This document shows positions 1-62,972 of a DNA stretch of 64,000 nucleotides, piece after piece (the first letter of the stretch is position 1; every line of letters starts with the position of its first letter). The position numbers and the translations under genes were made by a program. A model generated the notes under the pieces. The model was not told where the DNA came from. It saw only the letters and a list, made by a program, of their open reading frames with translations, and made no database searches. Source of the DNA: Abditibacterium sp. (lineage in GTDB: Bacteria > Armatimonadota > Abditibacteriia > Abditibacteriales > Abditibacteriaceae); assembly GCA_965199495.1 (NCBI GenBank), contig CBDASK010000003.1:800001-864000 (forward strand). The letters are read 5' to 3'.

Positions 1-663
1 GAATCGAACCCGGCGGCGCTGCAATGGTTACTCAAACAGGGCCTGCCGCTCGTCGCGCTTTCACACGCGCCGGTCGCGCCCTATCGCGTGCGCATCGATC
101 ACGGCGAAGTCGCTTATCGTGGCGCGACCGAACTGGCCCGGCGTGGCTGCCAGCGCATCGCGCTGTGGATTCCGGCGGGCGTCGGAATTGGGCCGGACGA
201 GACGAGCGCCGACTTCGAGGAATTGACGCAATTCAAGCGCGCGCTGGAAGAAAATAAGGCGAAATACGATGAAAAATTGGTTTTCAACCTTTCGCAATTG
301 AGCGCGAACGTGCCCGCGACGCCGCTGGGCAGCAATCGCGAGCAGGGCAAAAACGCCGCGCTCGAAGTTTTCGGCGGCGACAAATCGAATTGGCCCGATG
401 GCATCGTCTGCCTCGATGACATGATGGCGCTGGGCGCCTTGGCCGAAATGCGCAAACTACGCGTCGCTTTGGGCGAAGATGTGCAGTTCGCCACGCACAG
501 CAACGTCGGCTCGTCGTTGCTCATCGGTTTTGGCGACGATTTGATTCTGCTTCAGATCGATCCGGCCCGCGTGGCTGGTGCGATGTCGCAGATGTTGGAA
601 TCATTGCTGCGCGGCGAAGAGATTCGCGAACCGGTTGTGGCAGTCGGGCCGAGTGTGGGTTAG
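1..663 (+). CDS. LacI/GntR-type transcriptional regulator, C-terminal sugar-binding domain (5' truncated by window)
   Basis: Frame open from base 1 (ESNPAALQWLL...); motifs PDGIVCLDDMMALG and LGEDV typical of the LacI effector domain. Confidence 0.8.
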   Translation, partial: ESNPAALQWLLKQGLPLVALSHAPVAPYRVRIDHGEVAYRGATELARRGCQRIALWIPAGVGIGPDETSADFEELTQFKRALEENKAKYDEKLVFNLSQLSANVPATPLGSNREQGKNAALEVFGGDKSNWPDGIVCLDDMMALGALAEMRKLRVALGEDVQFATHSNVGSSLLIGFGDDLILLQIDPARVAGAMSQMLESLLRGEEIREPVVAVGPSVG

Positions 664-694
664 TTGCGGATGACGGATTGGGGGGGGGCGCGAT

Positions 695-828
695 TGTCAT
701 TTCGAGCGAAGCCGAGAAATCTGTTGCCCGCGCGGCAGCGCAAGTTCAATCTACATCTACGTTCAGGCTCTCGCCTCGTTTCCGCTGGCGCGGGGCCGAA
801 AGATTTCTCGGCTTCGCTCGAAATGACA
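695..828. repeat. Palindromic element, TGTCATTTCGAG family
   Basis: Perfect 28-bp inverted arms 695-722/801-828; spacer ends match the element at 8630 in reverse orientation. Confidence 0.9.
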
Positions 829-865
829 TCGCGCGCCATCCGAAATCCGTAATCCGTAATCCGAA

Positions 866-1999
866 ATGCACCTTTTCCTCAGCGTCGGCGATTTATCCGG
901 CGATATTCACTGTGCCGCGCTCGTGCGCGAATTGTTGAAGCGCCATCCCGATTGGCAAATCAGCGCGCTGGCCGGAGCAGCCACGGCGGCGGCGGGCGCG
1001 ACCATTATCGGCGATACAGGCGGTTTGGGCGTCATAGGATTTAGTTCGGCCCTCGCGGTCGTGCCGCGCAGTTTGCGACTCAAAAAACGCGCGTTTCAAT
1101 GGCTCGAAGCCAACCAGCCCGACGCGGCGATTTTGTGCGATTGGGGCGGTTTTAATACGCGCATTTTGCCCAATTTGAACGCGGCGAAAATCCCGGTTTT
1201 CTATTATTTCCCGCCGCGTTCGTGGCAAAAAGCGGGCGATGGCGGTTTGGGTATCGCGCCACATTGCGCGCGCATCGCGACGCCGTTTCCGTGGTCGGCC
1301 AAGCGATTGAACGAAGCAGGCGGCAAAGCCAGTTGGGTCGGTCATCCAATTTTGGAGCGATTGCAAAATGCAACGCCGCGCGAACAGTTGCGCGCCGAAT
1401 TCGGCGTCGCGCGAGGCGAAACGTTTATCGCGCTGTTGCCCGGCTCGCGTTCGATGGAACTGAAAAGTATCGCTCCGCACGTTGCGCGCGCGGTCGAAAT
1501 CTTGGCAAAACCCAATCGCGCCTTCGCCGTGGCTGCTGCGCCCGGCGCGGCGCCCGCGCTCCGCAAAATCTTCGGCGATAACATTCAAATCATCGAAGAC
1601 CGCACCTTTGATATTCTGCGCGCCGCCGATTTCGCCATCGTCAAAAGCGGCACTTCGACGCTCGAAGCCGCCGTCGCCAATTGTCCGCAAATCGTGGTTT
1701 ACGACGCGCCGCGCGCGCTGCACTGGCAAGTCGCGCTGACTGGTTTGAGAAAGAAAATCCCATTTATCGGTATGCCCAACGTCATCGCCGGGCGCTCGAT
1801 TATTCCAGAAATTTTAGGCGACGATTGTCGCGAGAAAAACATCGCGCAAGCCGTCGAATCTATTTTGGGTGACGCCACCAAACTCGCCCAAATGAGCCTC
1901 GATTACGCCCTCGTCAGGCGCGAATTAGGCGCCGATTTGCCGCGCGGCGCGACAGCAGCCACGGCGGATGGAATCGAAGAAATGCTGATTAACAGATAA
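866..1999 (+). CDS. lpxB: Lipid-A-disaccharide synthase
   Basis: GDLSGD, VGHP, LLPGSR, KSGTSTLE and MPN motifs; lipid A cluster context. Confidence 0.93.
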   Translation: MHLFLSVGDLSGDIHCAALVRELLKRHPDWQISALAGAATAAAGATIIGDTGGLGVIGFSSALAVVPRSLRLKKRAFQWLEANQPDAAILCDWGGFNTRILPNLNAAKIPVFYYFPPRSWQKAGDGGLGIAPHCARIATPFPWSAKRLNEAGGKASWVGHPILERLQNATPREQLRAEFGVARGETFIALLPGSRSMELKSIAPHVARAVEILAKPNRAFAVAAAPGAAPALRKIFGDNIQIIEDRTFDILRAADFAIVKSGTSTLEAAVANCPQIVVYDAPRALHWQVALTGLRKKIPFIGMPNVIAGRSIIPEILGDDCREKNIAQAVESILGDATKLAQMSLDYALVRRELGADLPRGATAATADGIEEMLINR

Positions 2000-4827: not shown

Positions 4828-6189
4828 ATGTTTCGATTTTTCAATTTTTTAGTTACCCCGTTCGTGCCTGCGCTCTGGCTTTATACGTTGCATCGCCGCT
4901 TCGTCCGAGGCAAATCGGCGGATTCTTATCGCGGACAATGGGGCCAAATCACGCCGCAGATGCGCGCATTTGGACGTTCAAGCGGCCCGAAAATTTGGCT
5001 GCACGCGGTTTCGGTTGGCGAAACGATGGCAGCGCGGCCCATCGCGCGCGCGCTCAAAGCGCGCCTGCCCGACGCGAAAATCGTGCTATCTTCGACGACC
5101 GATACCGGACACGAAGTCGCATTATCCGCCGTGAAAGCGGGCGAAGCGGATTTGGCGATTTATTTTCCGCTCGATTTGCCATTTGTTTTGCGGCGCGTTT
5201 TAAACGCGTTGCGGCCCGATGCGATTGGCTTCGTCGAAACCGAACTTTGGCCAAATTTGTTGGAATTGTCGCGAAGACGCGGCATCCAAACTTTTCAACT
5301 CAACGGACGTGTCAGCGACAATTTGCTCAAATCGGCGCCACGATTGGGGCCACTGTGGAAATGGATGAGCGGCAATGTCGGGCAGTTTCAAATGCGCGGC
5401 GAAACGGACGCGGAACGTTTGCGCTCGCTCGGCGTGGCTGATGAAAAGATCGTGGTCGTCGGCGATGTCAAATTGGAATCACCGCCGGTTTCGAGCGACG
5501 AATTGCGGCGCAAATGGCGCGGCGAATTGGGATTGCGCGATGAAGATAAGTTATTGATTTGCGGTTCGACGCACGCGGGCGAAGAAGCGATGATTTTGGA
5601 TGCGACGCGCGAAATCGAAGGTTTGAGTTTGGCGATTGCGCCGCGTCATATCGAACGCGCTGGCGAAGTCGCGGATTTGATCGAAACGCGTGGATTCAAA
5701 GTCGCGCGGCGTTCACGCGGCGAAAATCTGAGTGGGGCGGGGCTTGCGCCCTCTTCCAATCTTTCGCTTTCTGAAATCCGATTGGAAGAGGGCGCAAGCC
5801 CCGCCCAAGCTCACTCCGGCGACACGGTTTATTTGCTCGACACCGTCGGCGAATTAAGCGATTTTTATGCGGCGGGCGATATAACTTTCGTTGGCGGTAG
5901 CTTAATTCCACGCGGCGGACATAACGTTTTGGAACCGGTTCTGCGTGGCGCACCCGTTTTATTTGGGCCGCACATGATGAATTTCCGCGCCGCCGCGCAG
6001 TTGGTGAGAGAAAATGAGTTGGGCGAACAAGTCGAAAACGCCGCTGATTTAGCGCCAGCGATAAACCGCTGGTTCGATGCAGCCACGGCGCGCGGCGAGT
6101 TTGAAGCCCGCGTGGAAAAAGCGCTGTCATCTCATCGTGGCGCGGCGGCGCGCGCGGCGGATTTGGTCGCGCAAAGGTTGGATTTATAG
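4828..6189 (+). CDS. waaA: 3-deoxy-D-manno-octulosonic acid (Kdo) transferase
   Basis: IWLHAVSVGE, ETELWPN, GSTH, APRH and GGHNVLEP motifs. Confidence 0.95.
   Translation: MFRFFNFLVTPFVPALWLYTLHRRFVRGKSADSYRGQWGQITPQMRAFGRSSGPKIWLHAVSVGETMAARPIARALKARLPDAKIVLSSTTDTGHEVALSAVKAGEADLAIYFPLDLPFVLRRVLNALRPDAIGFVETELWPNLLELSRRRGIQTFQLNGRVSDNLLKSAPRLGPLWKWMSGNVGQFQMRGETDAERLRSLGVADEKIVVVGDVKLESPPVSSDELRRKWRGELGLRDEDKLLICGSTHAGEEAMILDATREIEGLSLAIAPRHIERAGEVADLIETRGFKVARRSRGENLSGAGLAPSSNLSLSEIRLEEGASPAQAHSGDTVYLLDTVGELSDFYAAGDITFVGGSLIPRGGHNVLEPVLRGAPVLFGPHMMNFRAAAQLVRENELGEQVENAADLAPAINRWFDAATARGEFEARVEKALSSHRGAAARAADLVAQRLDL
5735..5806. repeat. In-frame intragenic palindrome (CTCTTCCAAT family) within waaA
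   Basis: Perfect 27-bp arms 5735-5761/5780-5806; encodes GAGLAPSSNLSLSEIRLEEGASPA. Confidence 0.9.
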
Positions 6190-8852: not shown

Positions 8853-9500
8853 CTATTCGCTCGCCACGCGCGGCAACAAGTCGGCAACGGCAAATTCGAC
8901 TTCGGGTTGCCACAACGTCGCGGCGTGGCTGCTTTCGGGCACGATGAGGCGCACGCTGTAACCCCAGCCAAACGGCATCGCCGAATCGCGTTGCGTGCCG
9001 CGATGAATTTCGAGTTGGCGCTCTTCCACGTTCAATATCCAATACTCCGTGATTCCGGCGCGCGCATAAGCCGAGGCTTTGGCGCGGCGGTCAAAGGAAA
9101 GAGTCGCGTCCGAAACTTCCAATGCGAGCAAAACATCGTCTGGCGCCGGATGATTTTGGTAATCGTCGTCGGTGCCGCGCGCCAAAACCAAATCGGGTTC
9201 GGGTTCGGAAGTTTCGTTCAACCGAATCGGAAGCTGAATTCGGATGGCAACCTGGCCACCAAAAGCTGTGAAGAATGCGAGACTGGTTTTGCTAACCGCC
9301 ATCGCGTGCGGGCCGAGCATTGCTGCCATTTTGTCGTAAATTACTCCTTCAATTAATTCGACGCGGCGCCCTTCAAAGGCTCCGGCTTCGGTCAAGAGTT
9401 GATACTCGTGCCACGTTAACGCATGAGCGCGTGGCTCCTCGATTTGCGGCGAGAGCGCGCCCGCTTGAATCGCGATTTGTGGGCGTTCCAATGTTTGCAT
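8853..9500 (-). CDS. Uma2 (DUF820) family endonuclease
   Basis: RVELIEG, SEPEPDL, LEVSD and KASAYARAGITEYWILN motifs. Confidence 0.92.
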   Translation of the reverse strand: MQTLERPQIAIQAGALSPQIEEPRAHALTWHEYQLLTEAGAFEGRRVELIEGVIYDKMAAMLGPHAMAVSKTSLAFFTAFGGQVAIRIQLPIRLNETSEPEPDLVLARGTDDDYQNHPAPDDVLLALEVSDATLSFDRRAKASAYARAGITEYWILNVEERQLEIHRGTQRDSAMPFGWGYSVRLIVPESSHAATLWQPEVEFAVADLLPRVASE

Positions 9501-9501
9501 T

Positions 9502-10368
9502 TTACTTCTCCTCCTCGAACGGAATCGGGCGCACCGTGACTTTCTGGCCGTCTTCGCCTTCGACGTGCAGTTCCGTTCCCGGCGCGTTCCACTCGTTGCG
9601 CACGTAGGCCAGACCGATGGCGCCAAAGCGCGGACTTTCCAGGCAACTCGTCAAATATCCGGCGGGTTTGTCGCCGAACATTAATTTTTGGCGCGAAGGA
9701 CATTTGCATTCCAACTCCACGCCGACCAACTTTTGCTTGACTTTTTTATAAGTGTCCAAACGCGCGATAATTTCCTGGCCGTTATAGCAACCTTTGTTCA
9801 TCGAAACGGCGAAATCCAGACCGGCTTCCCACGGGTTGAAATCCTCGACGAGTTCGGCGCCCGCGACCGGAATGCCGTCTTCGACGCGCAAAACATTGAA
9901 GGTTTCGGTATCGCAATCGAGGGCGCCGTCGGACGGATCGAACGACAAAAAGCCGCCGCCGGGCAAACGTTTGGTTGGCCAGCGCGGGCCGACGACTTCG
10001 ATGGCGCGCGGGCCGAATAAGCCCCATAGCTTGTCGTCACCAGCCACGTCGTCAATGGTGACGACCTGGCGAAACAAAACGTAGCGCAACGCGTGATTTT
10101 TGAAGGATTGTTTGCGATTGGGCGACGTAATCACCCAGAAATCCGACGAGTGGCGCCGCAAAATCGTGAGCCAATCCAAAACGCGCGCCTGAGAAGTCAC
10201 CAGAGCGGCCTCGCGAACTTCGCCGGGGCGCATCGAATTTACGTCTTGCGTGGTCAGATGATGCAACAAATTCGCGGCATCTTTGCCCCACACGCGGTAG
10301 CGGCCAAAATGACTCATATCGCGCCGCACCAAACCGTGGCGGGCCGCTTCGTAGACTTCTAAATCCAT
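9502..10368 (-). CDS. ygfZ: Folate-binding GcvT/YgfZ family protein
   Basis: KGCYNGQE signature; LHHLTTQD. Confidence 0.85.
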   Translation of the reverse strand: MDLEVYEAARHGLVRRDMSHFGRYRVWGKDAANLLHHLTTQDVNSMRPGEVREAALVTSQARVLDWLTILRRHSSDFWVITSPNRKQSFKNHALRYVLFRQVVTIDDVAGDDKLWGLFGPRAIEVVGPRWPTKRLPGGGFLSFDPSDGALDCDTETFNVLRVEDGIPVAGAELVEDFNPWEAGLDFAVSMNKGCYNGQEIIARLDTYKKVKQKLVGVELECKCPSRQKLMFGDKPAGYLTSCLESPRFGAIGLAYVRNEWNAPGTELHVEGEDGQKVTVRPIPFEEEK

Positions 10369-12049: not shown

Positions 12050-12982
12050 TTATTTTGGAATCGGCGCGGGCCACTGCGCAAATTTCAGCTTTTGCCCGGC
12101 TTTGACTTTCGATATATCTATCGGATCGAGCGCAAAAGCTAATGGCCAACGCTCGTCCGCGCTGATGCGGCCATGCAAATTGCCCATCGTTTTAAGCGGC
12201 GGAGACGCTGGCGCGCCCAAATTCCAGTTCACGATGCGGCGCAATGGATTTTTTGGCTCAACGGTTGCCTCAGAATCGCGACCGGAGCCGTAGGTCGTGC
12301 GCTTGAACGTGACCGTTCCCGACAAATCGACATCTACTGGCGTTTGAGCGTTCATGCCCGCGCCCAGTAAATCGAATTGGATTTCACCTTGAATCAAGCC
12401 CGTAGCTGCCGAAACGATTTTTACTGCGCGCACCCGAACTTGTGGCGTGCGCAGCATCGCCTTGAAATCGAAAGGCGCGAACTGCGCGCGATCGATTTTC
12501 CAGCGTCCCACGAGCGGCGGCCTCGGCGTGGCTGCGGGCACGCCGGGAGTAGGAGAATTGACCGAAATCGGTTGCGTTTTAAATTTAAAAGCGAGTTTCC
12601 CATCGGGAATTGCCAACGCGTTAATCGGCAAACGCAAGTTGTCTTTGTTGTAAAATTGACCTTTCCAAACTTTGTCCCAGGCGCTCGGAGTTGACCAGCT
12701 TTGGCTCGACCCGCGTTTCATGCCTTGTTCTGTTTGCACTTCCAAAAACGAGTCGGTTTTGCTGCTGTCCATTCTGAAGTTCTTCGCGTCATCGCCCCTA
12801 ATTTGCGCAGTCAAAGCCGCGTTCGCGCCTCCAAATGCTTCGAGCGTCGTCGGCTTTTTGATGCGAAATTCCACATGCAAAGGTATCGGCGCCGGGCGCG
12901 TCGCGACCCACAAACCCGCGCCCGCGATAAGAGCCACCGGCAAGCACAACAGCGCAAACTCGCGCGCGGAAAAACGATTCAT
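12050..12982 (-). CDS. Hypothetical protein with N-terminal membrane anchor
   Basis: 310-aa ORF with a hydrophobic N-terminus, in an operon-like arrangement. Confidence 0.7.
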   Translation of the reverse strand: MNRFSAREFALLCLPVALIAGAGLWVATRPAPIPLHVEFRIKKPTTLEAFGGANAALTAQIRGDDAKNFRMDSSKTDSFLEVQTEQGMKRGSSQSWSTPSAWDKVWKGQFYNKDNLRLPINALAIPDGKLAFKFKTQPISVNSPTPGVPAATPRPPLVGRWKIDRAQFAPFDFKAMLRTPQVRVRAVKIVSAATGLIQGEIQFDLLGAGMNAQTPVDVDLSGTVTFKRTTYGSGRDSEATVEPKNPLRRIVNWNLGAPASPPLKTMGNLHGRISADERWPLAFALDPIDISKVKAGQKLKFAQWPAPIPK

Positions 12983-12994: not shown

Positions 12995-13333
12995 CTACTT
13001 TTCGTAAACCGTTTCTCCCGGCGGATAGCAAATCAACTCGACGGCGTTGCCCGCCGGGTCTTGGACGTAGATGCCTTTGGTGCCGTCGCGATGCGCGTCA
13101 ATCGGCACGCCCGCTTTGGCAGCAGCCACGGCGAGGGCGCTTTCGTCCACGCGTAACGCAACGTGCGGCGGATGTTGTGTCGGTGTGACCAAAGCGAGTT
13201 TGCCCTGCCCCAATTTCAAAAAGGCCCAGGTGTCGTCATGATACAAAACGGTGGCGCCGAAATTTTCGACATAAAAGGCAACGCCCTCGGCGATATTGGG
13301 AGCGGGCACGGCGACGTGATCGAGTTCAAACAT
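12995..13333 (-). CDS. VOC/glyoxalase family protein
   Basis: LDHVAV...FY...FG, HVAL and YVQDPAGNAVEL. Confidence 0.88.
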   Translation of the reverse strand: MFELDHVAVPAPNIAEGVAFYVENFGATVLYHDDTWAFLKLGQGKLALVTPTQHPPHVALRVDESALAVAAAKAGVPIDAHRDGTKGIYVQDPAGNAVELICYPPGETVYEK

Positions 13334-50826: not shown

Positions 50827-51369
50827 GTGCGCTATTTGTTGCCCGGTTTGTGGCACTTCGCGGCGGCGATGGCGTTTGCGGCCTCGTTCGGCGTTTTCCA
50901 AAAGCAGGACTTGACTTTCTGGTTGCAACAACCGGTTTTCACCATCGCTCTGATCGTTTGTTCATCGGCCTTTTTTTTCGTACCGGACAGATGGTCGAAA
51001 AAGGGTTTGCTCAAGTTTTTTCATTACCCGTTGCCCGATTGGGACGTATTGTTTTTGGGGCCAGCCTCGCATCGCAACTGGCTGACGCACTCGCCGTTTT
51101 TGGCGATTTTGTGTTTGGGCGCGCTGTGGAAATGGCCGCACAGCGCGAGTTTCCCTGGCGTCATGGCGGGCGCGATGGGCGTTTGTATTGGCGTGGGCAG
51201 CCATCTGTTTTGGGATTGCGTGGGCAGCAAGCAACACAAAATCATCGTGGTGCCGCATTGGATTCATCTGCGCGAAGTCGCCTCGCGATTGTATTTGCTC
51301 ATTGGCGCCTTCATTTGCCTCGCCGTGGCTGGTGCCATCGCTGCGGCGTTTTCGGTGAAACCGATTTGA
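50827..51369 (+). CDS. Membrane protein, putative metal-dependent hydrolase (YdjM-like motifs)
   Basis: LPDWD, HRNWLTHS and SHLFWD. Confidence 0.65.
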   Translation: MRYLLPGLWHFAAAMAFAASFGVFQKQDLTFWLQQPVFTIALIVCSSAFFFVPDRWSKKGLLKFFHYPLPDWDVLFLGPASHRNWLTHSPFLAILCLGALWKWPHSASFPGVMAGAMGVCIGVGSHLFWDCVGSKQHKIIVVPHWIHLREVASRLYLLIGAFICLAVAGAIAAAFSVKPI

Positions 51370-51591: not shown

Positions 51592-53613
51592 ATGAAAAGT
51601 CGTCCGCTTCAATACTTGGGACTGGCCTTGCTGCTTTTAGCGAGTCTGGTCGTCATCTTTTTCCCCATTGGCTCAGCGCCGCAATCGCAACCGTTTACGG
51701 TGTCGGTCGTGGCGCCCAAGCCGTTTAGCGAGCTGGCGCCCAAAGGCAAATCGCCCACCGATGCCGCCGATGCCGCGTTCGTTACGGCGTTCAAAAACTC
51801 GACTTTGCCCGGCGCTCTCACCGTCGGCACCGATCCAAAAACGGCCACAGTCGAAGCGCAGGCCACAACTCAGGCCGATGCGCGCGACAAAGCCGCGCGC
51901 ATCGTTTCGGCGCTCGACACGCAGTTCAAAGGCGTGCAACTGGCGCCGACGTTCTCGGTTGCCGATTTGCCCGCCAAACCGTTGGTTTCGCTCGGCAAAT
52001 ACGCGGTTTTCCCGTCGCGCGAGCGCAACGGTAGCGTCGAACCCGCCGTGAAACTCGGCCTCGATTTGCAGGGCGGCGTCAATCTCGTGTTGCAAGTCCG
52101 CCGCGCGATGTTTCCTTATACGATAACCAATGCGCCGACCGATCCCGCCGCGCGCGAGGAAATACTGAACCAAATCCGCGCCAAGTTAGCAGCCACGTCG
52201 GACGACTTGGGACTGCGCGGCGCCGATGTCGGGTTCAACAAAACAGCACCCGACCAAATCGAAGTGCGTTCGCAGGCCAAAGATAAAGACCAATTTAACG
52301 CGCAGGCCAAAGTTATTGGCGACGCGATGGCGAGCCTGAAAGGCGTGCAAATCGCGCCGACGCGGGCGCCGCAGTTTTATGTGCCCGACATTAAACCCGG
52401 CCAAACCGGCACCACCAACGCCGATTTACTGGCGACGACTGTGGAAATCATTCGTTCGCGCGTTGACAAATTGGGCGTTTCGGAACCTTTAATTCAATCG
52501 CAGCCGCCAGATCGCGTTTTGGTACAGTTGCCCGGCGTCAACGATCCGCAAAAAGCAGTCAATATCATCGGCCAGACGGCGCAGATGGAAATCCGTTTGT
52601 TGCCCCAGAACCTGCGCCCGATTGAAAATCCGAAAGACCCCAACAGCACTTTGTTCGCTGATGCGCAGGGCAATTTGGTGCCGACTGCCAAAGCGCGCGA
52701 CGAATCGGAATTGTTGGTTTCGGGCATTGACGTGAAGCCGACGACCGCCGCCGGTTTCGGTCAAAACGGCGAGCCTTTGGTCTCGTTCGAGTTGCAGGGC
52801 GAAGGCGCGCGCAAATTCGCGCAGGTCACGACCGAAGTCGCGGGCAAAAACCGTTTCATCCCGATTTTCCTGGACGATACCGCGATTTCGGCGCCCGTCG
52901 TGCAAAGCGCCATTACGGGCGGCAGCGGCCAAATTTCGGGCGGCTTCAAAACCATCGAAGAAGCGCAATCCTTGGCGGTTCTGCTCAATTCGGGCGCCCT
53001 GCCCGCGCCGATTGATGTCGTGGAAAACCGCACCGTTTCGGCGACATTGGGCCAGGATTCGCTCGTCAAATCGCTGCACGCGGGCGCCATCGGTTTGCTC
53101 GCCGTCGCGATTTTCATGGTCGTGTTTTATCGTCTGGCCGGAATGCTGGCGAACTGCGCGGTCATGGTTTATACCATTCTCAACCTCGTGGTTTTCATCT
53201 TGGTTGGCGGCACGTTGACCCTCCCCGGTATCGCCGGGTTTTTACTGGCGTTGGCGATGTCGCTCGATACCAACATTTTGATTTTTGAACGCTTGCGCGA
53301 AGAGATGGCGATTCAGCCGACGTTTGCGGCAGCGTTTCGCGCGGCTTTTGCGCGCGCTTGGACGGCGATTTTGGATTCGCACGTCACCACGCTGATTGCG
53401 GCGGTCGTCTTGTTTTACTTTGGCACCGGCCCGATCAAAGGCTTCGCTTTGACGCTGGGCATCGGCGTCATTTTGAGCCTGTTCTCGGCGATTTCGGTGA
53501 CGCGCCTGTTCATGTGGAGCGTCGCTAAATTCGGCGAAACTCACCCGAATATGTTCGCGGGCAAAATTCCCGAACGCGAGGCGGTTTTGATGGAGCGAGG
53601 CACAAAAGGCTAA
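51592..53613 (+). CDS. secD: Protein translocase subunit SecD
   Basis: LGLDLQGG, RVDKLGVSEP, SGALP and NILIFER. Confidence 0.96.
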   Translation: MKSRPLQYLGLALLLLASLVVIFFPIGSAPQSQPFTVSVVAPKPFSELAPKGKSPTDAADAAFVTAFKNSTLPGALTVGTDPKTATVEAQATTQADARDKAARIVSALDTQFKGVQLAPTFSVADLPAKPLVSLGKYAVFPSRERNGSVEPAVKLGLDLQGGVNLVLQVRRAMFPYTITNAPTDPAAREEILNQIRAKLAATSDDLGLRGADVGFNKTAPDQIEVRSQAKDKDQFNAQAKVIGDAMASLKGVQIAPTRAPQFYVPDIKPGQTGTTNADLLATTVEIIRSRVDKLGVSEPLIQSQPPDRVLVQLPGVNDPQKAVNIIGQTAQMEIRLLPQNLRPIENPKDPNSTLFADAQGNLVPTAKARDESELLVSGIDVKPTTAAGFGQNGEPLVSFELQGEGARKFAQVTTEVAGKNRFIPIFLDDTAISAPVVQSAITGGSGQISGGFKTIEEAQSLAVLLNSGALPAPIDVVENRTVSATLGQDSLVKSLHAGAIGLLAVAIFMVVFYRLAGMLANCAVMVYTILNLVVFILVGGTLTLPGIAGFLLALAMSLDTNILIFERLREEMAIQPTFAAAFRAAFARAWTAILDSHVTTLIAAVVLFYFGTGPIKGFALTLGIGVILSLFSAISVTRLFMWSVAKFGETHPNMFAGKIPEREAVLMERGTKG

Positions 53614-53664: not shown

Positions 53665-54705
53665 ATGGATTTTCGTGGAAAAAATATAGACCTCGTCGGC
53701 AAAATGTGGCTGTGGTTTGGCATTTCGATAGCGGTCATGTTGATTGGTCTCGTCGGCTGGCTTATCCCGCCGACGGGCCTCAACCTGGGCATTGATTTCA
53801 AGGGCGGCTCGCAATATACCTATCGCATTCCGGCCAATGTGCGCCCGCAGGCGGGTCAGGAAATCGGGCTTTTGCAAAAGGTCAATGGCAATTTGAACGG
53901 CGGCAAACTCTTGGGCACGCGCACGCAAATCGCGGGCGGCCAAGACCTCATCGTCAATACTTCGGCGGCCTCATCGTCGGAAGCCACAGCGCAACAGGGC
54001 ATCGTGGATAGCGCCGTCGCCAAAGCGTTTGGCGTGCCGCAAATCAAGCCCGAAAGCCAGCAACAGGTCGGCGCCGTCATCGGCGACGAACTGCGCGCTA
54101 ACGCCATCAAAGGCGTTTTGGTCGGCGTGATTCTCATCGCGTGCTGGATTTATATCCGCTACAACTTCGCGGGCGACGGCCTCCGCTACGCCGTGGCTGG
54201 TATCGTCGCCTTAGTTCACGACGTAATCGTGTTGCTTGGATTGTTCGCGCTCATCGGCAAAATTGATCCGCGCATCGAAGTGGACAGCGGCTTTATCGCG
54301 GCACTTTTGACGGTCGTCGGTTACTCGATTAACGATTCGGTGGTTATTTTCGACCGCGTGCGCGAGAACCTGCGCACACGGCGCAAAGAATCGTTCGAGA
54401 AAATCGTCAACGATTCGCTGCTGGAAACCATGAGCCGCTCGATTAACACTGGTTTGACGGTTTTAATTATGCTGTTCGCGCTGTTGATGTTGGGTGGCGA
54501 GAGCATTTACAGCTTTGTTTTGGCGATGTTGATTGGCATCGCTTCGGGTCTGTATTCCTCGATTTTCAACGCGTCTATGGTGATTGTGGCGTGGCATCGT
54601 TGGGACGAGAAAAAAGCGGAACAGGCGCGCGCCAATCGTTCCAATCGCCCGCAGGTCAAAGTGCGCGAAACCGGTCGCGGAACCGGCGTGACGCGCAGCA
54701 AATAA
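53665..54705 (+). CDS. secF: Protein translocase subunit SecF
   Basis: LGIDFKGG, GYSINDSVVIFDRVRE and YSSIF. Confidence 0.96.
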   Translation: MDFRGKNIDLVGKMWLWFGISIAVMLIGLVGWLIPPTGLNLGIDFKGGSQYTYRIPANVRPQAGQEIGLLQKVNGNLNGGKLLGTRTQIAGGQDLIVNTSAASSSEATAQQGIVDSAVAKAFGVPQIKPESQQQVGAVIGDELRANAIKGVLVGVILIACWIYIRYNFAGDGLRYAVAGIVALVHDVIVLLGLFALIGKIDPRIEVDSGFIAALLTVVGYSINDSVVIFDRVRENLRTRRKESFEKIVNDSLLETMSRSINTGLTVLIMLFALLMLGGESIYSFVLAMLIGIASGLYSSIFNASMVIVAWHRWDEKKAEQARANRSNRPQVKVRETGRGTGVTRSK

Positions 54706-55957: not shown

Positions 55958-56473
55958 TTAATAACCTTCAACAGCGTTGCTATCGGCGGGCGCGGCGTTG
56001 GTCGCCGTGGCTGCATTGTCGGCGTTAGTCGAGTCGGGTGCAATCGGCTTGGCTTTGTTGGCGCTGCCCGAAGGCGCGGGCGGATTGATAATCGTGTTAT
56101 TGATTGTCGTTTTGCCTTTGTCCGAATTATCGGCGGGTGGGCTGGCGACGGGGGCGCGCGGCGCTGGATCGGTGTTGCGCATGGTCGTTTTTGTTTGCGT
56201 TGTCGTCGTGCTGACGGGCGGCGCCACGACGATGGTGTTGGGCGCGGGCACAGCCGTCGGCGCGACGATAATCGTCGTGTTGGATTCGGGCACCGGAGTA
56301 TTGGCGACAATCGTTTCTTTTTCGTGATTGATGATAACCGGACTGGTTTCGGGCGTGGCGGGGTGGCGCGTGGCGAAATAAGCCAGCGCGGCGCCGCCCA
56401 CGACGAGAAGCGCGATAAGGCCCATAATCAGGGCCGAGTTGCTCTGTTTGCGAGCTTGAGGATCGTATGCCAT
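55958..56473 (-). CDS. Single-TM Pro/Thr/Ala-rich hypothetical protein
   Basis: TM helix followed by a low-complexity tail; GGAA upstream of ATG. Confidence 0.7.
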   Translation of the reverse strand: MAYDPQARKQSNSALIMGLIALLVVGGAALAYFATRHPATPETSPVIINHEKETIVANTPVPESNTTIIVAPTAVPAPNTIVVAPPVSTTTTQTKTTMRNTDPAPRAPVASPPADNSDKGKTTINNTIINPPAPSGSANKAKPIAPDSTNADNAATATNAAPADSNAVEGY

Positions 56474-56632: not shown

Positions 56633-57529
56633 ATGAAAGGAATTATTCTCGCCGGTGGTAGCGGCACGCGCCTCCACCCGCTCACGCTCGCCGTCTCCAA
56701 ACAATTATTACCAATATACGACAAGCCGATGATTTATTATCCGCTTTCCACGCTGATGTTGGCGGGCATCCGCGACATTTTGATTATCTCGACGCCGCAC
56801 GATTTGCCGCTTTTCGAGCATTTGCTGGGCGACGGCTCCAACTGGGGCATCAATTTGACCTATGCCGTGCAGCCATCGCCCGACGGTTTGGCGCAGGCGT
56901 TTGTTATCGGGCGCGAATTTCTCGACGGCGGCCCAGCCTGTCTGATTTTAGGCGACAACATTTTTTATGCCGATGGTTTAAGCGGAACACTGCAAAAATC
57001 CGCGCAAATTCAGAGCGGCGCACAGGTTTTCGGCTACTGGGTCGCCGACCCGGAGCGTTACGGCGTTATCGAATGGGAGTCGCAGCCCAAAGGTCTGGCG
57101 AGCAGCAGCCACGGCGGCGGCAAGGTGCTTTCGATTGAAGAAAAACCCGACCAGCCCAAATCGAATTACGCCGTCGTCGGTTTGTATTTCTACGATTCAC
57201 AAATCTCCGACATCGCGCAACAAGTCAAACCTTCCAAACGCGGCGAACTGGAAATTACCGAAGTCAACAATTTGTATCTAAAACAAGAGCAACTCCACGC
57301 CACACGCTTGGGACGCGGCGCGGCGTGGCTCGATACAGGCACGCATGAATCGCTGCTCGAAGCCTCGAATTTCATCGAAGTCATCGAAAAACGTCAGGGC
57401 TTGAAAATCGCCTGTTTGGAAGAAATCGCTTACCAGATGGATTGGATAGACGCCGAATCGGTTTTGCGTCAGGCCCGCGCGCTGGGCAAAACCGAATATG
57501 GGCGCTATCTGGAACGCTTGGTGAAATAA
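56633..57529 (+). CDS. rfbA: Glucose-1-phosphate thymidylyltransferase
   Basis: [32 protein letters not shown] and WLDTGT. Confidence 0.97.
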
Positions 57530-57667: not shown

Positions 57668-60600
57668 TTATTTCCAATTTAAATTCGCGATTCGATAACT
57701 CGAATCCATGTCGTTGCCGTCGAAGCCGACCCAGCGATAAGCGTCGCCCTGCATCGCGCCCAGACGCAGCGTCTGAATTTTCCACGATTTTTCGCCGGGG
57801 AACTCTTTCGCCAACGCCGCGCCGATGTCGAAGCTGTAAGCGTTGCCCGCGTTTTTCATCGCGCCTAAAACGGGGGCCATCGGGTCGGGCTTTTGGCCGC
57901 CGTCAATTGTAATGGTGTGCCACTGATCGTCAATCATCGCGTAGAGATCAACTTTCACACCGGCGGGCACGGCGGCGTTCATCGAGAACTTGGTCTCCGG
58001 CGTGGCTGTTAGCGGCGCGCGGTTCAAATCTACGGCGAAGATGCCGCCCGCAACCGGATTAGTAATCGTCCATGCGTCTTTGTCGGGCGCGACAATCGCG
58101 GTTTTGATGTCGGTTTCGACAACCCCAACCGGCGCCAAACCGTCCGTTTTGGGCGCGCTGTCGGTGTCCACATAAGCCGCTTCCATCAGGCCGGATGGCA
58201 GGGCGCGCGTGCCCATTTTTTCGGCTTCGATTTTGGCGCGCGCGATCATCATCGTCGAATCGAGCGTCCAAAACGCGACGCGTCCGCCGTCTTTATACAA
58301 GGGCAGCGGATCGGGATCGAAATAATCGAGCAGCTTTTCGTCGTTGAACGAGAGCGAAACCAGAACGCCGTTTTTGCCGTTTTGCGTGGCGGCGCGGGCG
58401 CTGGCGCGGATGTAATACCACACGCGATGCCACGCCATATTGTGGTTGATCGTGTTTTTGAAAATGCCACCGCTGTCCGTTTTTTCCGCCACGACTTTGT
58501 TGCCGCGCAGAATTTTGGTCGCCGTATTGTTGTCGCCCGCCAGCACGAACGAATAGCCGCTCGCCGGGTTTTTGCCGTCGCCGCACAGCGAAATATTCAG
58601 GTCGCCCGGATGCGAGTAGCCCGGTTCTTTGGGCAAGTCCATTTGCGGGTGCGCATAAAATTCGGCGACGACATCGCCGCCATAAGTGCGCTTGCTCCAC
58701 AAAGTCGGATGGCGTCCCGCCCCGCCGAAGAACGACCAATCGCCATAGCAGGGCCAGCGCGAAAACACGTTCCAGCGACCCGACGGCGCGTAAAAATCAA
58801 CGGGCGCTTCGGTGAAGGTATAGTCGTCGCGGTTGGCCGTTGTCGCGAGCAGTTTTTCGGTGCGCACGCGCACGCCGCTCGAACGCACGCCCATTGATCT
58901 GCCCGTCGGCGGAGAGGGATCGAGATACGACAAAATCGGCGTTTCGCCCGCCAAAAGCATCAAGCCGTTGCCGGTCAATTGCAGATGCAGCGTGCCGCCT
59001 TCGGGCGTGTTAATATCGGGCAAATCGGCGTAAGGCATCGTCGCACTCGCCAGAGTTTTGCCGCCGCGAATCAAAGTCCACTCAATTTTTTTGGCCGCCT
59101 GATCGGAAGAGGCGCGCAGCAGATAACCCGAATCAAAATCGCCGCGTTTGGCGCGTAGCGCCGCCTCAAACTTGCTGGACGGCCAGCTCGCGCGCCACGG
59201 AAAATCGAGCGTGGTGTCGCCGAAAAATTCGCCGGTATTCCAAAACTCCAAGCCGCTCGCGCCCGGCGTCGGCGGCCACTGGCCGCTCGAACTCGCCCAA
59301 CCGACCATGTAGGCGTCGTCTTCCATTTTGGTGGCGACCGTGGGCGGTTCGGGCGGCGGCGGGAAATAAATCACCGCGTCCTTGAAAGCCGCCGACGTGG
59401 CTCCCGGCGCCAGCAGACCGAATCGTCCGTTGGTCAAATTAGGCGCGCTCGCCTGCGCGATGAGTTCATCGCCCGCCTTGACACGCAAAACGCCGTTGCG
59501 CGCGTCAATCTGGAAGCGCGCGTAACCATCTTTGTCGGTCTGCGCGGCCAAATCGGCGTCACCCTCGAACAGCGTTGTTTTTGCGCCATTCACCACGCGA
59601 ATAATGCGCGCTTTTTTATCCGGCGAAATTTGGAAGGCCGTATAATTCTTGGCATCGCGCACGCCGACCGCATAACCCAGCGTCGCGCCGGGTTTGATTT
59701 GCGCCGAAATGTGGGCGCGGTAACCGTCCCAGTTGCGCGCGCCCGTCACCAATAAGCCGTCGTTCTGACCAGCAGCCACGCCGCCCGCCAACTTCCAATC
59801 GCCGCTGGCTTTTTCCCACGCGCCGTTGTTGGAAAACGCGGTTCGCAGAAAATCGTAGGAGCGCACTTCGACATCGTCGAATTCGGCGGCGTCCATATTT
59901 TTGGCCCACAAACCGACGCCGCCCTGCCCCAACGCCTCGTTGTTGGCGCGCAAAACTGGCACGCCATCCACAATCGCCTCAATGTAACCGGGCGAAGTGC
60001 GAATCCCGATTTTATACCATTGTTTGGGCAAAAACGCGCCTTTGGCCTGCGCCAAAACCGTGACTTTACCATCGGCCACGCGCACCAGTTGGCGCGCGCC
60101 ATCGCCTTCTTCGCTGCTCCAGCGAAAGGCCAGATAATTTTTGGCGTCCTTGACATAAGCCGCCATGCCGATTTGCCCGGCGCCGCCCGGTCGCACGGCA
60201 ACGCGCGCATCGTAGGAATCCCAGAACCAGCGGCCCGTCGTCGCCAACGATTCGGCGTTTGGGCTGACGACTTGAAACGCGAACGGATTAGAACTCATGT
60301 CGGCGTTTTTGGTGGAAATATGCTCCGACGAAGTGGACAATTGCCACTTGCCCGTCGTTTTCCACAAATCGTCGCCCTCGCCGCCGATGCGAGTGAAGTC
60401 GTCGTCGAAGCGCACTACGTCCAAAGGTTGCACGCGCAGTTCTCCCCAATCGGCGGGCGCGGTGCCGATTTTCCCGGCGTCGAACGAGGCGTCGAACCCA
60501 CGGAGCGCGACGTTATCGTCCACCACCAATTGCATCAGCCACGGGCGCCGTTGCAGCACGATTTGGTTTTTGGCGTCCCACTTAATCGGCGCGCTATTGA

Positions 60601-60847
60601 TCGTTTTTTTTGCGCCGTCAACGGTGCGCGAAAACGTGGCGCCCGTGGGCGTTAAGTCGAGCGAGTAGAAATTTTTTGCGTCTTTGTAATCGAAAACCAA
60701 CGTTTGCGAAGCCACCGGGCGCGGCATATCCCACGAAACGTTGGTGGATGGTTCGGCGGCATCGTCGAGAAATTGGGGCGCGGCATGAACGTGAGGAGCG
60801 CAGAATGCGAGCGCGGACAGTGCAATGGCGAAGCGATATGGAAGCAT
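57668..60847 (-). CDS. Large secreted protein with repeated concanavalin-like beta-sandwich domains
   Basis: Signal peptide; recurring D.KN(Y/F)(Y/L/T) units and FDDVEV. Confidence 0.65.
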   Translation of the reverse strand: MLPYRFAIALSALAFCAPHVHAAPQFLDDAAEPSTNVSWDMPRPVASQTLVFDYKDAKNFYSLDLTPTGATFSRTVDGAKKTINSAPIKWDAKNQIVLQRRPWLMQLVVDDNVALRGFDASFDAGKIGTAPADWGELRVQPLDVVRFDDDFTRIGGEGDDLWKTTGKWQLSTSSEHISTKNADMSSNPFAFQVVSPNAESLATTGRWFWDSYDARVAVRPGGAGQIGMAAYVKDAKNYLAFRWSSEEGDGARQLVRVADGKVTVLAQAKGAFLPKQWYKIGIRTSPGYIEAIVDGVPVLRANNEALGQGGVGLWAKNMDAAEFDDVEVRSYDFLRTAFSNNGAWEKASGDWKLAGGVAAGQNDGLLVTGARNWDGYRAHISAQIKPGATLGYAVGVRDAKNYTAFQISPDKKARIIRVVNGAKTTLFEGDADLAAQTDKDGYARFQIDARNGVLRVKAGDELIAQASAPNLTNGRFGLLAPGATSAAFKDAVIYFPPPPEPPTVATKMEDDAYMVGWASSSGQWPPTPGASGLEFWNTGEFFGDTTLDFPWRASWPSSKFEAALRAKRGDFDSGYLLRASSDQAAKKIEWTLIRGGKTLASATMPYADLPDINTPEGGTLHLQLTGNGLMLLAGETPILSYLDPSPPTGRSMGVRSSGVRVRTEKLLATTANRDDYTFTEAPVDFYAPSGRWNVFSRWPCYGDWSFFGGAGRHPTLWSKRTYGGDVVAEFYAHPQMDLPKEPGYSHPGDLNISLCGDGKNPASGYSFVLAGDNNTATKILRGNKVVAEKTDSGGIFKNTINHNMAWHRVWYYIRASARAATQNGKNGVLVSLSFNDEKLLDYFDPDPLPLYKDGGRVAFWTLDSTMMIARAKIEAEKMGTRALPSGLMEAAYVDTDSAPKTDGLAPVGVVETDIKTAIVAPDKDAWTITNPVAGGIFAVDLNRAPLTATPETKFSMNAAVPAGVKVDLYAMIDDQWHTITIDGGQKPDPMAPVLGAMKNAGNAYSFDIGAALAKEFPGEKSWKIQTLRLGAMQGDAYRWVGFDGNDMDSSYRIANLNWK

Positions 60848-61100
60848 GAGAGGAGAAACGGCAAAGGGATTGGCCAAAATTTTGACCGGTAAAACAGCGT
60901 TAAGACAGGAATACTCAGACGTAGTTTCCCGCTCGAAGGCGCCGAAATTCTTTGAGTCGAGTGAGCAGGCGCAAAACTTTTCGCACTTGAATTGGTGCTT
61001 TTTTGCGCGAATTAGTGTAAAATTAATGGCAGTCCGCACCGCAGGGCCATAAACGCATCAAAGGATGAGATGGCATCGCGGTTTGCTTCACGAGGTTTTT

Positions 61101-62972
61101 ATGGCACTTTCCACCCCTCCCTCCAAGCACACGCAGCGCATGCTGCAACTGCTGGTCTCGAAGAACAAGATTTCCAAAGAGCAAGCCCTGCAAATTTGGA
61201 ACGATTCACAAGGCGACTCGGCACAGGCCGAACAGATCGCGGGCGAAATGAAAGTGCCCGAAGTGGATGTCGTTTCCGCCAAAGCCGAAGCGATGGGCGT
61301 TCCTTTCGTTGATCTGCATAAGACCAAACCTTCGGAAGAATCCAAAGATTTGGTGGATGCCGAAATGCAAGACCGCCTCAAAGCCGTCCCGCTTTATCAG
61401 GAAGGCGACACGTTAGTTGTGGCGATGGATGACCCCAAAAACTTCCACGCCATCGAAGATTTGCGTATTAAAACCGGACGCAAAATCCGCGGCGTTTTGG
61501 CGCCGCCTTCGCAGTTGCTGGCGTTTCGCAATGGCACCAACGGTTTCGCGGCCAAACCCGTTAACAACGACGGCGAAAAAGAAGCGCCCGAAGTCAATCT
61601 CGATGACAATGGCGATTGGGCTGGCAACGACGCGAGCATTGACGAAATGCTCGAAGGTTTGAAGCCCGTCCAAAAGATAGCCAACCTCGACGCAAAAAAT
61701 AGCAACAAAAATAAGCGCACGGCGGAAGATACCGACCGCGATGACAATGACGTCGCTGAACTCGATCCCAGTTCCATCGCGGGCGATAAAGAGGCGGGCG
61801 AAGAAGCGCCCATCATTCGCATCGTCAACACGATTTTGCTTTACGCCATTAAAGAAGGCGCTTCGGATATTCATATCGAGCCGCAATCCAAAGGCGTGCG
61901 CGTGCGCTACCGCATTGACGGCGTGTTGCACGAGCAGATGAAAATTCCGCAATACGTCTTGAACCCGCTCATTTCGCGCGTGAAAATCATGTCGGAGATG
62001 AACATCGCCGAACGCCGCATCCCGCAAGACGGTCGCATCAAAATCACCATGCAGGGGAAGGAATTCGACATGCGCGTCAACACCTGTCCGTCGGTCTTTG
62101 GCGAAAAGATCGTTATGCGTATTCTGGATAAATCTTCGGTTATGTTGGGTTTGGATAAAATCGGACTTTACGAAGATATGCAGGCGATGTTGCTCGATAT
62201 TGCCCTCCAACCCAACGGCATGCTGATTGTGTGCGGCCCGACCGGTTCGGGCAAAACCACGACGCTTTATTCGCTTTTGAACGTGGTTTCGACGATTGAG
62301 AAAAACGTCTCGACCGTCGAAGACCCGGTTGAGTATCAGTTGCCCGGCCTGACGCAGGTGCAGGTCAACCGCAAAGCCGGTTTGACATTCGCGACGGCAT
62401 TGCGCGCGTTCTTGCGCCAAGACCCCGACGTGATTATGGTTGGAGAAATCCGCGACCTTGAAACCGCCGAAATCGCGGTTCAGGCGTCGCTAACCGGTCA
62501 CCTTGTGTTATCTACGATTCACACTAACGATGCGCCTTCGAGCGCGACGCGTTTGGGCGACATGGGCGTCGAACCGTTCTTGATTTCGGCTTCGATGTCG
62601 GGCGCGTTGGCTCAACGATTGGCGCGACAGATTTGCAAAAGCTGCAAGGAAGAATATGAGCCACCGCGCGAGACTCTTTTGCGCTTTGGTTTCGACCCGC
62701 TCAAACATCCCGATCAGAAGTTCTACCGTGGGCGTGGCTGCGATGTCTGCAAGCAAACCGGCTACAAAGGCCGCACCGGCATTTACGAGTTGATGCAAAT
62801 CAATGAAGAGTTGCAGGAACTTATCGTGCGCCGCGCACCTGTGACTGAAGTTAAAGAAGCGGCACGCGCCAATGGCATGATGACGTTGCAGGAAGATGGC
62901 TTCCGCAAATGTAAAGATGGTCACACGACCGTGGAAGAAGTCATGCGCGTTGTGTTCACGGGCGGGCATTAA
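61101..62972 (+). CDS. pilB: Type IV pilus assembly ATPase (PilB/GspE family)
   Basis: ASDIHIEP, GPTGSGKTTTLY, LRQDPDVIMVGEIRD and tetracysteine motif. Confidence 0.93.
   Translation: MALSTPPSKHTQRMLQLLVSKNKISKEQALQIWNDSQGDSAQAEQIAGEMKVPEVDVVSAKAEAMGVPFVDLHKTKPSEESKDLVDAEMQDRLKAVPLYQEGDTLVVAMDDPKNFHAIEDLRIKTGRKIRGVLAPPSQLLAFRNGTNGFAAKPVNNDGEKEAPEVNLDDNGDWAGNDASIDEMLEGLKPVQKIANLDAKNSNKNKRTAEDTDRDDNDVAELDPSSIAGDKEAGEEAPIIRIVNTILLYAIKEGASDIHIEPQSKGVRVRYRIDGVLHEQMKIPQYVLNPLISRVKIMSEMNIAERRIPQDGRIKITMQGKEFDMRVNTCPSVFGEKIVMRILDKSSVMLGLDKIGLYEDMQAMLLDIALQPNGMLIVCGPTGSGKTTTLYSLLNVVSTIEKNVSTVEDPVEYQLPGLTQVQVNRKAGLTFATALRAFLRQDPDVIMVGEIRDLETAEIAVQASLTGHLVLSTIHTNDAPSSATRLGDMGVEPFLISASMSGALAQRLARQICKSCKEEYEPPRETLLRFGFDPLKHPDQKFYRGRGCDVCKQTGYKGRTGIYELMQINEELQELIVRRAPVTEVKEAARANGMMTLQEDGFRKCKDGHTTVEEVMRVVFTGGH

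Follow-up and report, generated by a model that had tools for sequence, protein, structure and literature searches.

Why does a 64,000-nucleotide stretch of an Abditibacterium chromosome carry the same octamer, CAGCCACG, dozens of times on both strands, and what kind of process could put it there? Within this stretch, here called the window (positions 800001-864000 of contig C3 in the source genome G000; other G numbers denote comparison genomes), we found 46 exact copies of CAGCCACG or CGTGGCTG, 25 on the plus and 21 on the minus strand, as against a mean of 2.33 (standard deviation 1.40, maximum 6) in 100 dinucleotide-preserving shuffles. The over-representation of a dispersed motif had been reported in a preliminary description of the window, and all 45 of the coordinates and strands listed there are present; one more copy (60536-60543, plus strand) had been overlooked. 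The continuation with nCG and the preceding G that it mentioned are found at 36 and 29 of the 46 copies, respectively. All 46 lie inside open reading frames as called by our own simple codon-model gene finder, a crude tool that returned 3,602 genes and called 85% of the sequence as coding. That the motif uses all six frame/orientation classes, as had also been stated, is correct genome-wide but not for the window, where five of the six occur.

On the entire chromosomal contig (4.72 Mb) we counted 3,083 copies (1,558 plus, 1,525 minus; 0.65 per kb), where Markov models of order 0-3 predict 161-248. Two small extrachromosomal contigs of 24.7 and 64.6 kb have 2 and 6 copies, and this density (0.08-0.09 per kb) is near background. 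Aligned sites give W-G-CAGCCACG-N-C-G as the full word, with no similarity past 13 bases. The 12-mer GCAGCCACGNCG occurs 1,350 times in G000; none of its one-letter variants exceeds 348 copies, and none exceeds 112 at any position except the first. In both orientations the word is spread evenly over the whole chromosome: copies per 20 kb have a mean of 13.1 and a variance of 12.7, four or fewer copies are found in just four 20-kb intervals (three of these at 1.14-1.22 Mb), and each 200-kb bin has about as many plus as minus copies. No replichore polarity was detected in these bins over the whole chromosome, and our own sum of the bins gives 52:48 on each of the two weak-skew arms, in agreement with the earlier remark that the motif is unlike Chi or the FtsK-orienting polar sequences (KOPS). 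The GC skew itself is very weak on this contig (cumulative minimum at 1.92 Mb, amplitude ~6,000 across 4.7 Mb), and genes show little strand bias. One word-poor stretch of about 100 kb (C3, ~1,119,000-1,225,000; GC 0.48-0.54), with six of the 21 largest inter-copy gaps, including the majority (five) of the top six, has probably been acquired recently as an island.

The word is imposed on DNA through synonymous codon choice, not on proteins. Coding sequences (CDS) hold 2,854 of the 3,083 chromosomal copies (93%; 0.71 per kb), while 221 are intergenic (0.32 per kb) and 8 straddle gene borders. Two spellings dominate, xxC-GTG-GCT-Gxx (Val-Ala, 1,227 copies) and xCA-GCC-ACG (Ala-Ala-Thr, 841 copies), and as these need GCT and GCA, the rarest Ala codons in the called genes (10% and 6%, next to 51% GCG and 33% GCC), the word is made by rare synonymous codons, just as the preliminary description had noticed. 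It had named a codon-preserving null model as the test that could abolish the enrichment, which persisted: of 2,855 CDS copies observed, synonymous-codon shuffling within genes left 268, or 500 and 915 when the next base or the next two bases were kept (10 shuffles each), tighter nulls that themselves retain part of the word. These three protein-preserving shuffles rule out a codon or peptide artefact and bear out the claim of a DNA-level signal. Expressed per opportunity, the encoded peptide permits the word at 9,129 CDS positions, of which 2,854 (31%) are occupied, compared with a neutral baseline of 2.9% (268/9,129) from the shuffles. In radA, for example, the conserved peptide S-A-V-A-A is spelled GCC GTG GCT GCx only in G000 and its nearest relative L001; eight other relatives spell it with other synonymous codons, with no indel. 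Sense and antisense strands have the same occupancy, which is uniform along genes and near-uniform over gene classes (0.23-0.34), and since the spacing rule described below also crosses gene borders, we rejected a transcript-level signal.

That spacing rule is strand-specific. Neighbouring copies alternate in orientation in 1,940 of 3,082 pairs (z = 14.4), so the interleaving of orientations noticed in the window is real and beyond chance. Relative to expectation, same-orientation pairs are reduced to 0.08-0.14 below 100 bp, 0.29-0.30 at 100-400 bp, 0.42 at 400-600 bp, 0.65 at 600-800 bp and about 0.8 up to 1,250 bp, reaching 1.0 beyond 1.5 kb, whereas the corresponding ratios for opposite orientations are 0.64-1.19 (outside an excess below 25 bp), 0.77-1.01, 0.97-1.14, 1.00-1.03, 0.99-1.24 and about 1.0. 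To control for protein constraint, we also scored occupancy, that is, the share of possible CDS sites filled, by distance to the nearest other copy. When the nearest same-strand copy lies within 50 bp, 2.5% of possible sites (10/396) are filled, rising to 5.0% (14/279) at 50-100 bp, 11-12% at 100-400 bp, 17% (144/846) at 400-600 bp, 25% (201/793) at 600-800 bp, 32% (234/735) at 800-1,000 bp and 39-50% beyond 1 kb, with 614 of 1,231 filled at 2-3 kb. As a function of distance to an opposite-strand copy, occupancy is flat (0.22-0.36). The same-strand exclusion extends across gene borders and is somewhat stronger near copies with the nCG extension. Each strand has its own lattice of copies, to which opposite-strand copies make no difference; a further same-strand copy gains nothing within a few hundred bases, and fully only beyond ~1-2 kb. 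This strand-specific redundancy is a new result: our literature search, which took in passages of PMC1939737, turned up no account of it for uptake sequences.

Because occupancy close to a same-strand copy (2.5-5%) equals the shuffle baseline (2.9%), a second copy is redundant rather than harmful. Harm from short direct repeats was rejected on two grounds: occupancy does not fall under the neutral baseline, and nine of ten asymmetric control 8-mers lack the deficit, their same-orientation ratios at 20-400 bp being 1.11-1.87. The exceptional control, AGCCACCG (ratio 0.48), has seven of its eight letters in register with the extended word. At the other extreme, inverted pairs closer than 25 bp are 2.3- to 3-fold in excess in pair counts, but over possible sites this shrinks to an occupancy of 0.36 versus ~0.31, so the excess is mostly sequence context and selection for hairpins inside genes was discarded. 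Among 99 close inverted pairs in G000, 85 are intragenic and 12 intergenic, some of them with terminator-like T-rich flanks.

When comparing 41 genomes, we found GCAGCCACGNCG to be abundant in three, namely G000 (1,350 copies), G011 (1,047) and G004 (431), with all others having at most 36 copies, on par with a reversed control; within Abditibacterium, the word is thus carried by 3 of 13 genomes. In a 385-kb sample of G011, both the logo and the spacing rule match those of G000, with 5 same-orientation pairs below 400 bp (27.5 expected) and 35 opposite-orientation pairs (27.1 expected). At 85.1% identity, these two genomes have 113 sites in common, 27 that are specific to G011 and 48 that are specific to G000. 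The word is kept more constant than other sequence between these sister species, 109 of 156 G000 sites being identical in G011 where phase-matched 8-mers predict 55; for G004 there is no such excess (52 of 199, 53 expected). A 500-kb sample of G004 contains 369 copies and reveals another dialect, CGAYAC-CAGCCACG-TCCTA(C), with 230 copies of which 145 are intergenic. These are mostly arms of long palindromes, 33 bp apart with the word in a 21-bp arm (67 close pairs are '+-' and 5 are '-+'), which are bordered by A- and T-runs and occur in all intergenic arrangements. Another 103 copies in G004 are of the G000 type, 79 of them in genes. Two further repeats were seen in these samples: an array of ~107 copies of a long repeat containing CCTAGGGTGCTATTCCGGC at G004:C3:1-100000 (L098-L102), possibly a large CRISPR array, and a 41-copy long repeat in the sample of G006:C24.

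De novo k-mer screens of sampled DNA, in which sparse words can escape small samples, identified unrelated hyper-abundant words in other genera of the family. The word AGTACGGTCGA has 2,412 copies genome-wide in G017 and at most 4 in each of the 40 other genomes; 81% of its copies are intergenic and 70% are in palindromic pairs, and exclusion below 400 bp applies in all orientations. Sister-genus genomes carry palindromes centred on AGTACT: TCGAGTACTCGA has 2,770 sites in G020, 2,510 in G024 and 144 in G022, the last together with the looser CGAGTACTCG at ~0.96 per kb, and G014 has GCAAGTACTTGC at 0.76 per kb. In G020 the density is 1.87 per kb between genes and 0.70 per kb within them, where all three frames are used, and 12.5% of spacings are below 400 bp compared with 33% expected. 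No hyper-abundant word was found in samples of G012 (400 kb), G009, G010, G002 and G006 (100 kb each), G023 (93 kb), G016 (73 kb), G039 (60 kb) or G038 (32 kb).

Whatever maintains CAGCCACG must act on DNA and on a single lineage's chromosome, without regard to the direction of transcription or replication, and must saturate per strand over ~1 kb. We regard the word as a lineage-specific 'self' word of one Abditibacterium subclade and suggest, at somewhat less than an even chance, that it is a self-DNA signal of the class formed by DNA uptake sequences (DUS), uptake signal sequences (USS) and the highly iterated palindrome HIP1, read on one strand during transformation or recombination. We infer that the reader would recognise the word on one strand, because it meets the DNA in single-stranded form or because it is an enzyme that tracks one way, and that one copy per ~1-kb stretch of strand would suffice. 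The best-fitting process would be recombination in which DNA enters, or is processed, in single-stranded form, in transformation or a step after uptake, with word-bearing strands being preferentially taken up, protected or integrated. Such preferential handling would give the word biased transmission (molecular drive), and it would keep spreading until copies at fragment-length spacing saturated each strand. The two known word classes of such abundance are both linked to transformation, which would fit this single-strand or one-way recombination reading. A strand preference of DUS-containing single-stranded DNA has been reported in gonococcal transformation. A bolder version, which we consider doubtful, would have the Abditibacteriaceae follow a family-wide, fast-evolving rule of one word per kb per strand, in which a single-strand recombination gate, a hybrid of uptake sequence and Chi, chooses the incoming or resected strand that recombines, and in which the word, by changing between sister lineages (CAGCCACG in two dialects, AGTACGGTCGA, TCGAGTACTCGA and GCAAGTACTTGC), acts as a genetic species barrier. 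If so, the per-strand exclusion length would be the working fragment length of the system.

Several observations weigh against a transformation-linked self signal. As Haemophilus uptake is reported to be independent of uptake-sequence orientation (PMC1939737), a classical surface receptor for double-stranded DNA predicts redundancy towards opposite-strand copies too; this was not seen, and the strand-read step is our own inference. Strand-specific redundancy over ~1 kb is predicted neither by an orientation-blind receptor for double-stranded DNA nor by the nucleoid-protein site offered in the preliminary description. The word is also rarer between genes than within them, unlike DUS and USS, and the replication of the spacing rule in G011 is not independent, as most sites are shared with G000 by descent. 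The literature searched holds no uptake, binding or transformation data for members of the phylum; among the matches listed, those for CAGCCACG were of primer type only, with no paper on the word, and those for Abditibacterium were ecological or taxonomic, with none on genome words. Finally, the competence genes are equally intact in word-less relatives and therefore do not discriminate. G000 has ComEC, DprA, ComEA and eight secretin matches, and a PilB-like ATPase gene lies within the window, confirming the type IV pilus ATPase mentioned earlier; nearly all of the 41 genomes have ComEA and ComEC. Pilin-like N_methyl matches number 48 in G000 and 143 in the word-less G012, too many for a single candidate to be picked out. 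The only truncated or split ComEA or ComEC frames among the 41 genomes are in G012 (C1:2735017-2735154 and C1:1341240-1341905; ComEA in a 62-aa frame, ComEC in a 558-aa frame) and G023 (C8:739589-740301; ComEC split into frames of 180 and 202 aa), both without a hyper-abundant word. We dismissed the two genes as discriminating between genomes because other word-less genomes have intact copies.

Among the rival explanations, an unlikely but credible one is a HIP1-like product of methylation and mismatch repair, in which a methyltransferase and a mismatch nuclease ratchet near-matches towards the word with no role in uptake, along the lines of the ratchet proposed by Elhai (cited in PMC5861425). 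The sister-genus palindromes around AGTACT are shaped as methyltransferase sites and HIP1 typically are, and kilobase-scale repair tracts could in principle give the same-strand range. Such a ratchet does not obviously explain why a same-strand second copy within 1 kb is neutral while the opposite strand is unaffected, and the known effects of very-short-patch repair on word frequency are small. In our search, which covered the C5 class, methyltransferase genes showed no pattern tracking the words, there being none in G014 and only a 220-aa fragment in G020, and HIP1 itself is reported to act in transformation (10.1101/2024.09.10.611283). A mobile hairpin repeat of the repetitive extragenic palindrome (REP/REPIN), miniature inverted-repeat transposable element (MITE) or Ssn type could account for the G004 word in its extragenic palindromes and the largely intergenic, paired word of G017, and Y1 (RAYT) transposase genes are present in all five genomes tested. 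This last fact removes them as candidates, since the five include word-less genomes, and for G000 the explanation is already contradicted: the similarity ends after 13 bases, the 2,854 intragenic copies arose from substitutions without indels, and REP-type mobility cannot write words by synonymous substitution. We see hardly any chance of it. A small, low-GC, stand-alone GIY-YIG gene of the Ssn type does exist in G000 (C3:3607828-3608181, minus strand), with a long hairpin repeat starting TGTCATTTCGAGC on both sides, whose core GTCATTTCGAGC has 90 chromosomal copies and none on the small contigs. Gene and repeat look like an Ssn/SRM pair as in PMC11893778, and as the gene is flanked by its own, different repeat, we rejected it as the reader of the word. 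A second REP-like hairpin family is present on the same contig (consensus CGTAGAGACACCGACTTGTCGTGTCTAAAACGT, 161 copies of its 10-mer core).

A one-way tracking enzyme would itself predict orientation-specific redundancy, and a Chi-like break-repair signal, at which a helicase-nuclease that enters at a DNA end and reaches the word in one orientation ceases degradation, would be needed in both orientations, every break having two ends. An AddB-like gene was found within the genus in 10 of 10 word-less genomes and 0 of 3 word-bearing ones. The reverse (3 of 3 versus 0 of 10) holds for a protein of 1,421 aa that combines a PD-(D/E)XK nuclease at its N-terminus with an SF1 helicase (AAA_11/AAA_12) at its C-terminus. 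In G000 this nuclease-helicase is encoded at C3:4111368-4115630 on the minus strand (L123:5365-9630) and adjoins a topoisomerase IB gene; no known defence or repair family matched it over its full length. The three word-bearing genomes are one clade, so that the pattern counts as a single event, and outside the genus the distribution does not track the words: the protein also occurs in three genomes with no such word in their small samples, G016 (73 kb), G038 (32 kb) and G039 (60 kb), and was not found in the word-bearing G020 or G014. We consequently dropped it as the correlate of the word. RecC was found in 0 of 5 genomes, and an AddAB-like pair is present in G012 and G006 but neither a Pfam search nor tblastn with the G012 pair brought up an AddAB-like gene in G000, which speaks against classical Chi. 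The absence of replichore polarity, the far lower enrichment of known Chi sites and the long hairpin forms of G004 and G017, which have no parallel in Chi, point the same way, and we think a Chi-like role improbable. Slightly more improbable still is a per-strand replication or repair signal, such as primase starts, programmed nicks or mismatch strand discrimination, needed about once per 1-3 kb per strand. It would suit two independent per-strand lattices with kilobase range and a genome with very weak GC skew, but if lagging-strand priming started from a fixed origin, the two replichores should carry the word in opposite orientations, whereas each has it at 52:48, and the scarcity on small contigs is left without a reason.

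The 46 copies in the window are listed below. Elsewhere in the window, the frame at 19156-20607 (minus strand) encodes an ADP-ribosylglycohydrolase fused to a dual-specificity phosphatase domain.

Copies of the word in the 64-kb window, with strand, gene context and reading frame (f, frame; peptides in brackets).
Word copy	Position	Strand	Context and frame	Remark
GGCAGCCACGCCG	142..149	-	CDS, antisense f0	
ACCAGCCACGCGG	570..577	-	CDS, antisense f2 (R-V-A-G)	
AGCAGCCACGGCG	978..985	+	lpxB-like CDS, sense f1 (A-A-T-A)	
AGCAGCCACGGCG	1528..1535	-	lpxB-like CDS, antisense f2 (A-V-A-A)	
AGCAGCCACGGCG	1956..1963	+	CDS, sense f1 (A-A-T-A)	
ATCAGCCACGCCG	5433..5440	-	kdtA-like CDS, antisense f2	
TGCAGCCACGGCG	6080..6087	+	CDS, sense f1 (A-A-T-A)	
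AGCAGCCACGCCG	8924..8931	-	CDS, sense f2 (S-S-H-A)	
ACCAGCCACGTCG	10041..10048	+	CDS, antisense f2	
CGCAGCCACGCCG	12527..12534	-	CDS, sense f1 (A-A-T-P)	
AGCAGCCACGGCG	13123..13130	+	CDS, antisense f2 (A-V-A-A)	
TGCAGCCACGTCG	14279..14286	-	CDS, antisense f2 (D-V-A-A)	
CACAGCCACGCCA	15983..15990	+	CDS, antisense f2	no nCG
GGCAGCCACGGGA	16082..16089	+	CDS	no nCG; 99 bp from same-strand copy 15983, both without nCG
CGCAGCCACGTCC	16791..16798	+	CDS, antisense f1 (T-W-L-R)	no nCG
AGCAGCCACGCCG	18438..18445	+	mgtE-like CDS, sense f1	
TGCAGCCACGTCG	19554..19561	+	CDS, antisense f2	
TGCAGCCACGGCG	20506..20513	-	CDS, sense f1	
TGCAGCCACGGCG	22811..22818	-	radA	spells conserved S-A-V-A-A
AACAGCCACGGCG	23334..23341	+	radA, sense f0 (Q-P-R-R)	common to L001
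GGCAGCCACGGCG	25283..25290	+	ispD CDS, sense f1	
AGCAGCCACGGCG	26417..26424	+	CDS, antisense f2	
CACAGCCACGCCG	27629..27636	+	CDS, antisense f2	
CTCAGCCACGGGC	27891..27898	-	CDS, sense f1	no nCG
GGCAGCCACGTCC	30287..30294	-	CDS, antisense f2	no nCG
TGCAGCCACGCCG	30550..30557	+	CDS, sense f1	
CGCAGCCACGGGC	33312..33319	-	CDS, sense f1	no nCG
TGCAGCCACGGCG	33563..33570	+	CDS, antisense f2	
ACCAGCCACGGCG	33947..33954	+	CDS, sense f2	
GCCAGCCACGGGC	35379..35386	-	CDS, antisense f2	no nCG
CACAGCCACGGCG	36738..36745	-	CDS, antisense f2	
TGCAGCCACGCCG	39105..39112	+	CDS, sense f2	
AGCAGCCACGGCG	39819..39826	-	CDS, antisense f2	
CACAGCCACGTCG	42011..42018	+	CDS, antisense f2	
CGCAGCCACGTCG	44162..44169	+	CDS, sense f2	
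ACCAGCCACGACG	46430..46437	-	feoB CDS, antisense f2	
AACAGCCACGGCG	47320..47327	+	feoB CDS, sense f1	
ACCAGCCACGGCG	51324..51331	-	CDS, antisense f2	
AGCAGCCACGTCG	52190..52197	+	secD CDS, sense f1	
ACCAGCCACGGCG	54192..54199	-	secF CDS, antisense f2	
TGCAGCCACGGCG	56006..56013	-	CDS, sense f1	
AGCAGCCACGGCG	57106..57113	+	CDS, sense f2	
AACAGCCACGCCG	58001..58008	-	CDS, sense f1	
AGCAGCCACGCCG	59773..59780	+	CDS, antisense f2	
ATCAGCCACGGGC	60536..60543	+	CDS, antisense f1	no nCG; absent from the earlier list
CGCAGCCACGCCC	62733..62740	-	PilB-like ATPase gene, antisense f0	no nCG

To our knowledge, the textbook cases of hyper-abundant genomic words come only from two proteobacterial families, with their uptake sequences, and from cyanobacteria with HIP1, for which the mechanism is still debated. 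The Abditibacterium case adds a little-studied phylum and a family whose sister lineages have different words, asymmetric or palindromic, and this diversity offers a natural set of comparisons in the search for the reader protein. Strand-specific redundancy places a quantitative constraint on mechanism, pointing to a word that is read on one strand with one copy serving ~1 kb, and the same per-strand test can be applied to DUS and USS, where it would separate an orientation-blind surface receptor from a strand-read step. As the word marks native DNA, it could also serve as a practical marker for foreign islands and in designing transforming DNA for these organisms.

Set against known systems, the word has partial likenesses to several. 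The G004 and G017 forms resemble REP/REPIN elements in being extragenic palindromes with copy numbers from the hundreds to the thousands; by contrast, 93% of the G000 copies are intragenic, and copies there have a length of 13 nt and arose by point substitution without indel. The NTS/SRM repeats read by Ssn nucleases offer a precedent for a genome-wide repeat that is read strand-specifically as single-stranded DNA and affects transformation (PMC11893778). Ssn cuts, and in lowering integration and transformation (PMC11893778) it would select against the word, and the ssn-like gene of G000 differs from Ssn/SRM pairs in being flanked by a repeat other than the word. With Chi the word has in common an asymmetric octamer, an orientation-dependent effect and the redundancy of a second downstream copy; it departs from Chi in its much higher enrichment, its 13-nt information content, its lack of co-orientation with replication and the failure to find RecC- or AddAB-like genes.

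The analogy with DUS, USS and HIP1 drawn in the preliminary description survives in abundance, lineage restriction, dialects, extrachromosomal scarcity and hairpin pairs, but not in the strand-specific redundancy, which does not fit an orientation-blind receptor. Cyanobacterial hosts of HIP1 have weak GC skew. HIP1 (GCGATCGC) is hyper-abundant by 15- to 300-fold (PMC5861425), which is of the same order as here, and like the Abditibacterium word it exceeds background in its conservation, and preferences for codons or peptides do not account for it; its palindromic form recurs in the words of the sister genomes G020, G022, G024 and G014, while that of G000 is asymmetric. HIP1 is conserved and periodic at 18-94 kb (PMC5861425), as opposed to the sub-kilobase to 1-kb same-strand exclusion found here, and it is reported to raise transformation efficiency in a methylation-dependent manner and has been proposed as an uptake signal (10.1101/2024.09.10.611283, PMC13756078). 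For USS and DUS, PMC1939737 reports no orientation bias, about 10% of copies as inverted repeats, and 65% (H. influenzae) or 35% (N. gonorrhoeae) of copies in open reading frames, and an intragenic bias of uptake sequences is reported in PMC2346458. The Abditibacterium word likewise is a non-palindromic 8-13-nt word at ~0.65 per kb, equal in both orientations, without replichore polarity and written through genes at the DNA level. It is limited to one lineage with sister-species dialects (G000 and G011 versus G004), forms intergenic inverted hairpin pairs (12 in G000, and also in G004 and G017), is scarce on extrachromosomal DNA and is accompanied by a competence gene set. It differs in belonging to the Abditibacteriota/Armatimonadota and in its lower density between genes than within them; and while one USS per fragment is reported to suffice in either orientation in Haemophilus (PMC1939737), the redundancy of the Abditibacterium word is confined to copies on the same strand.

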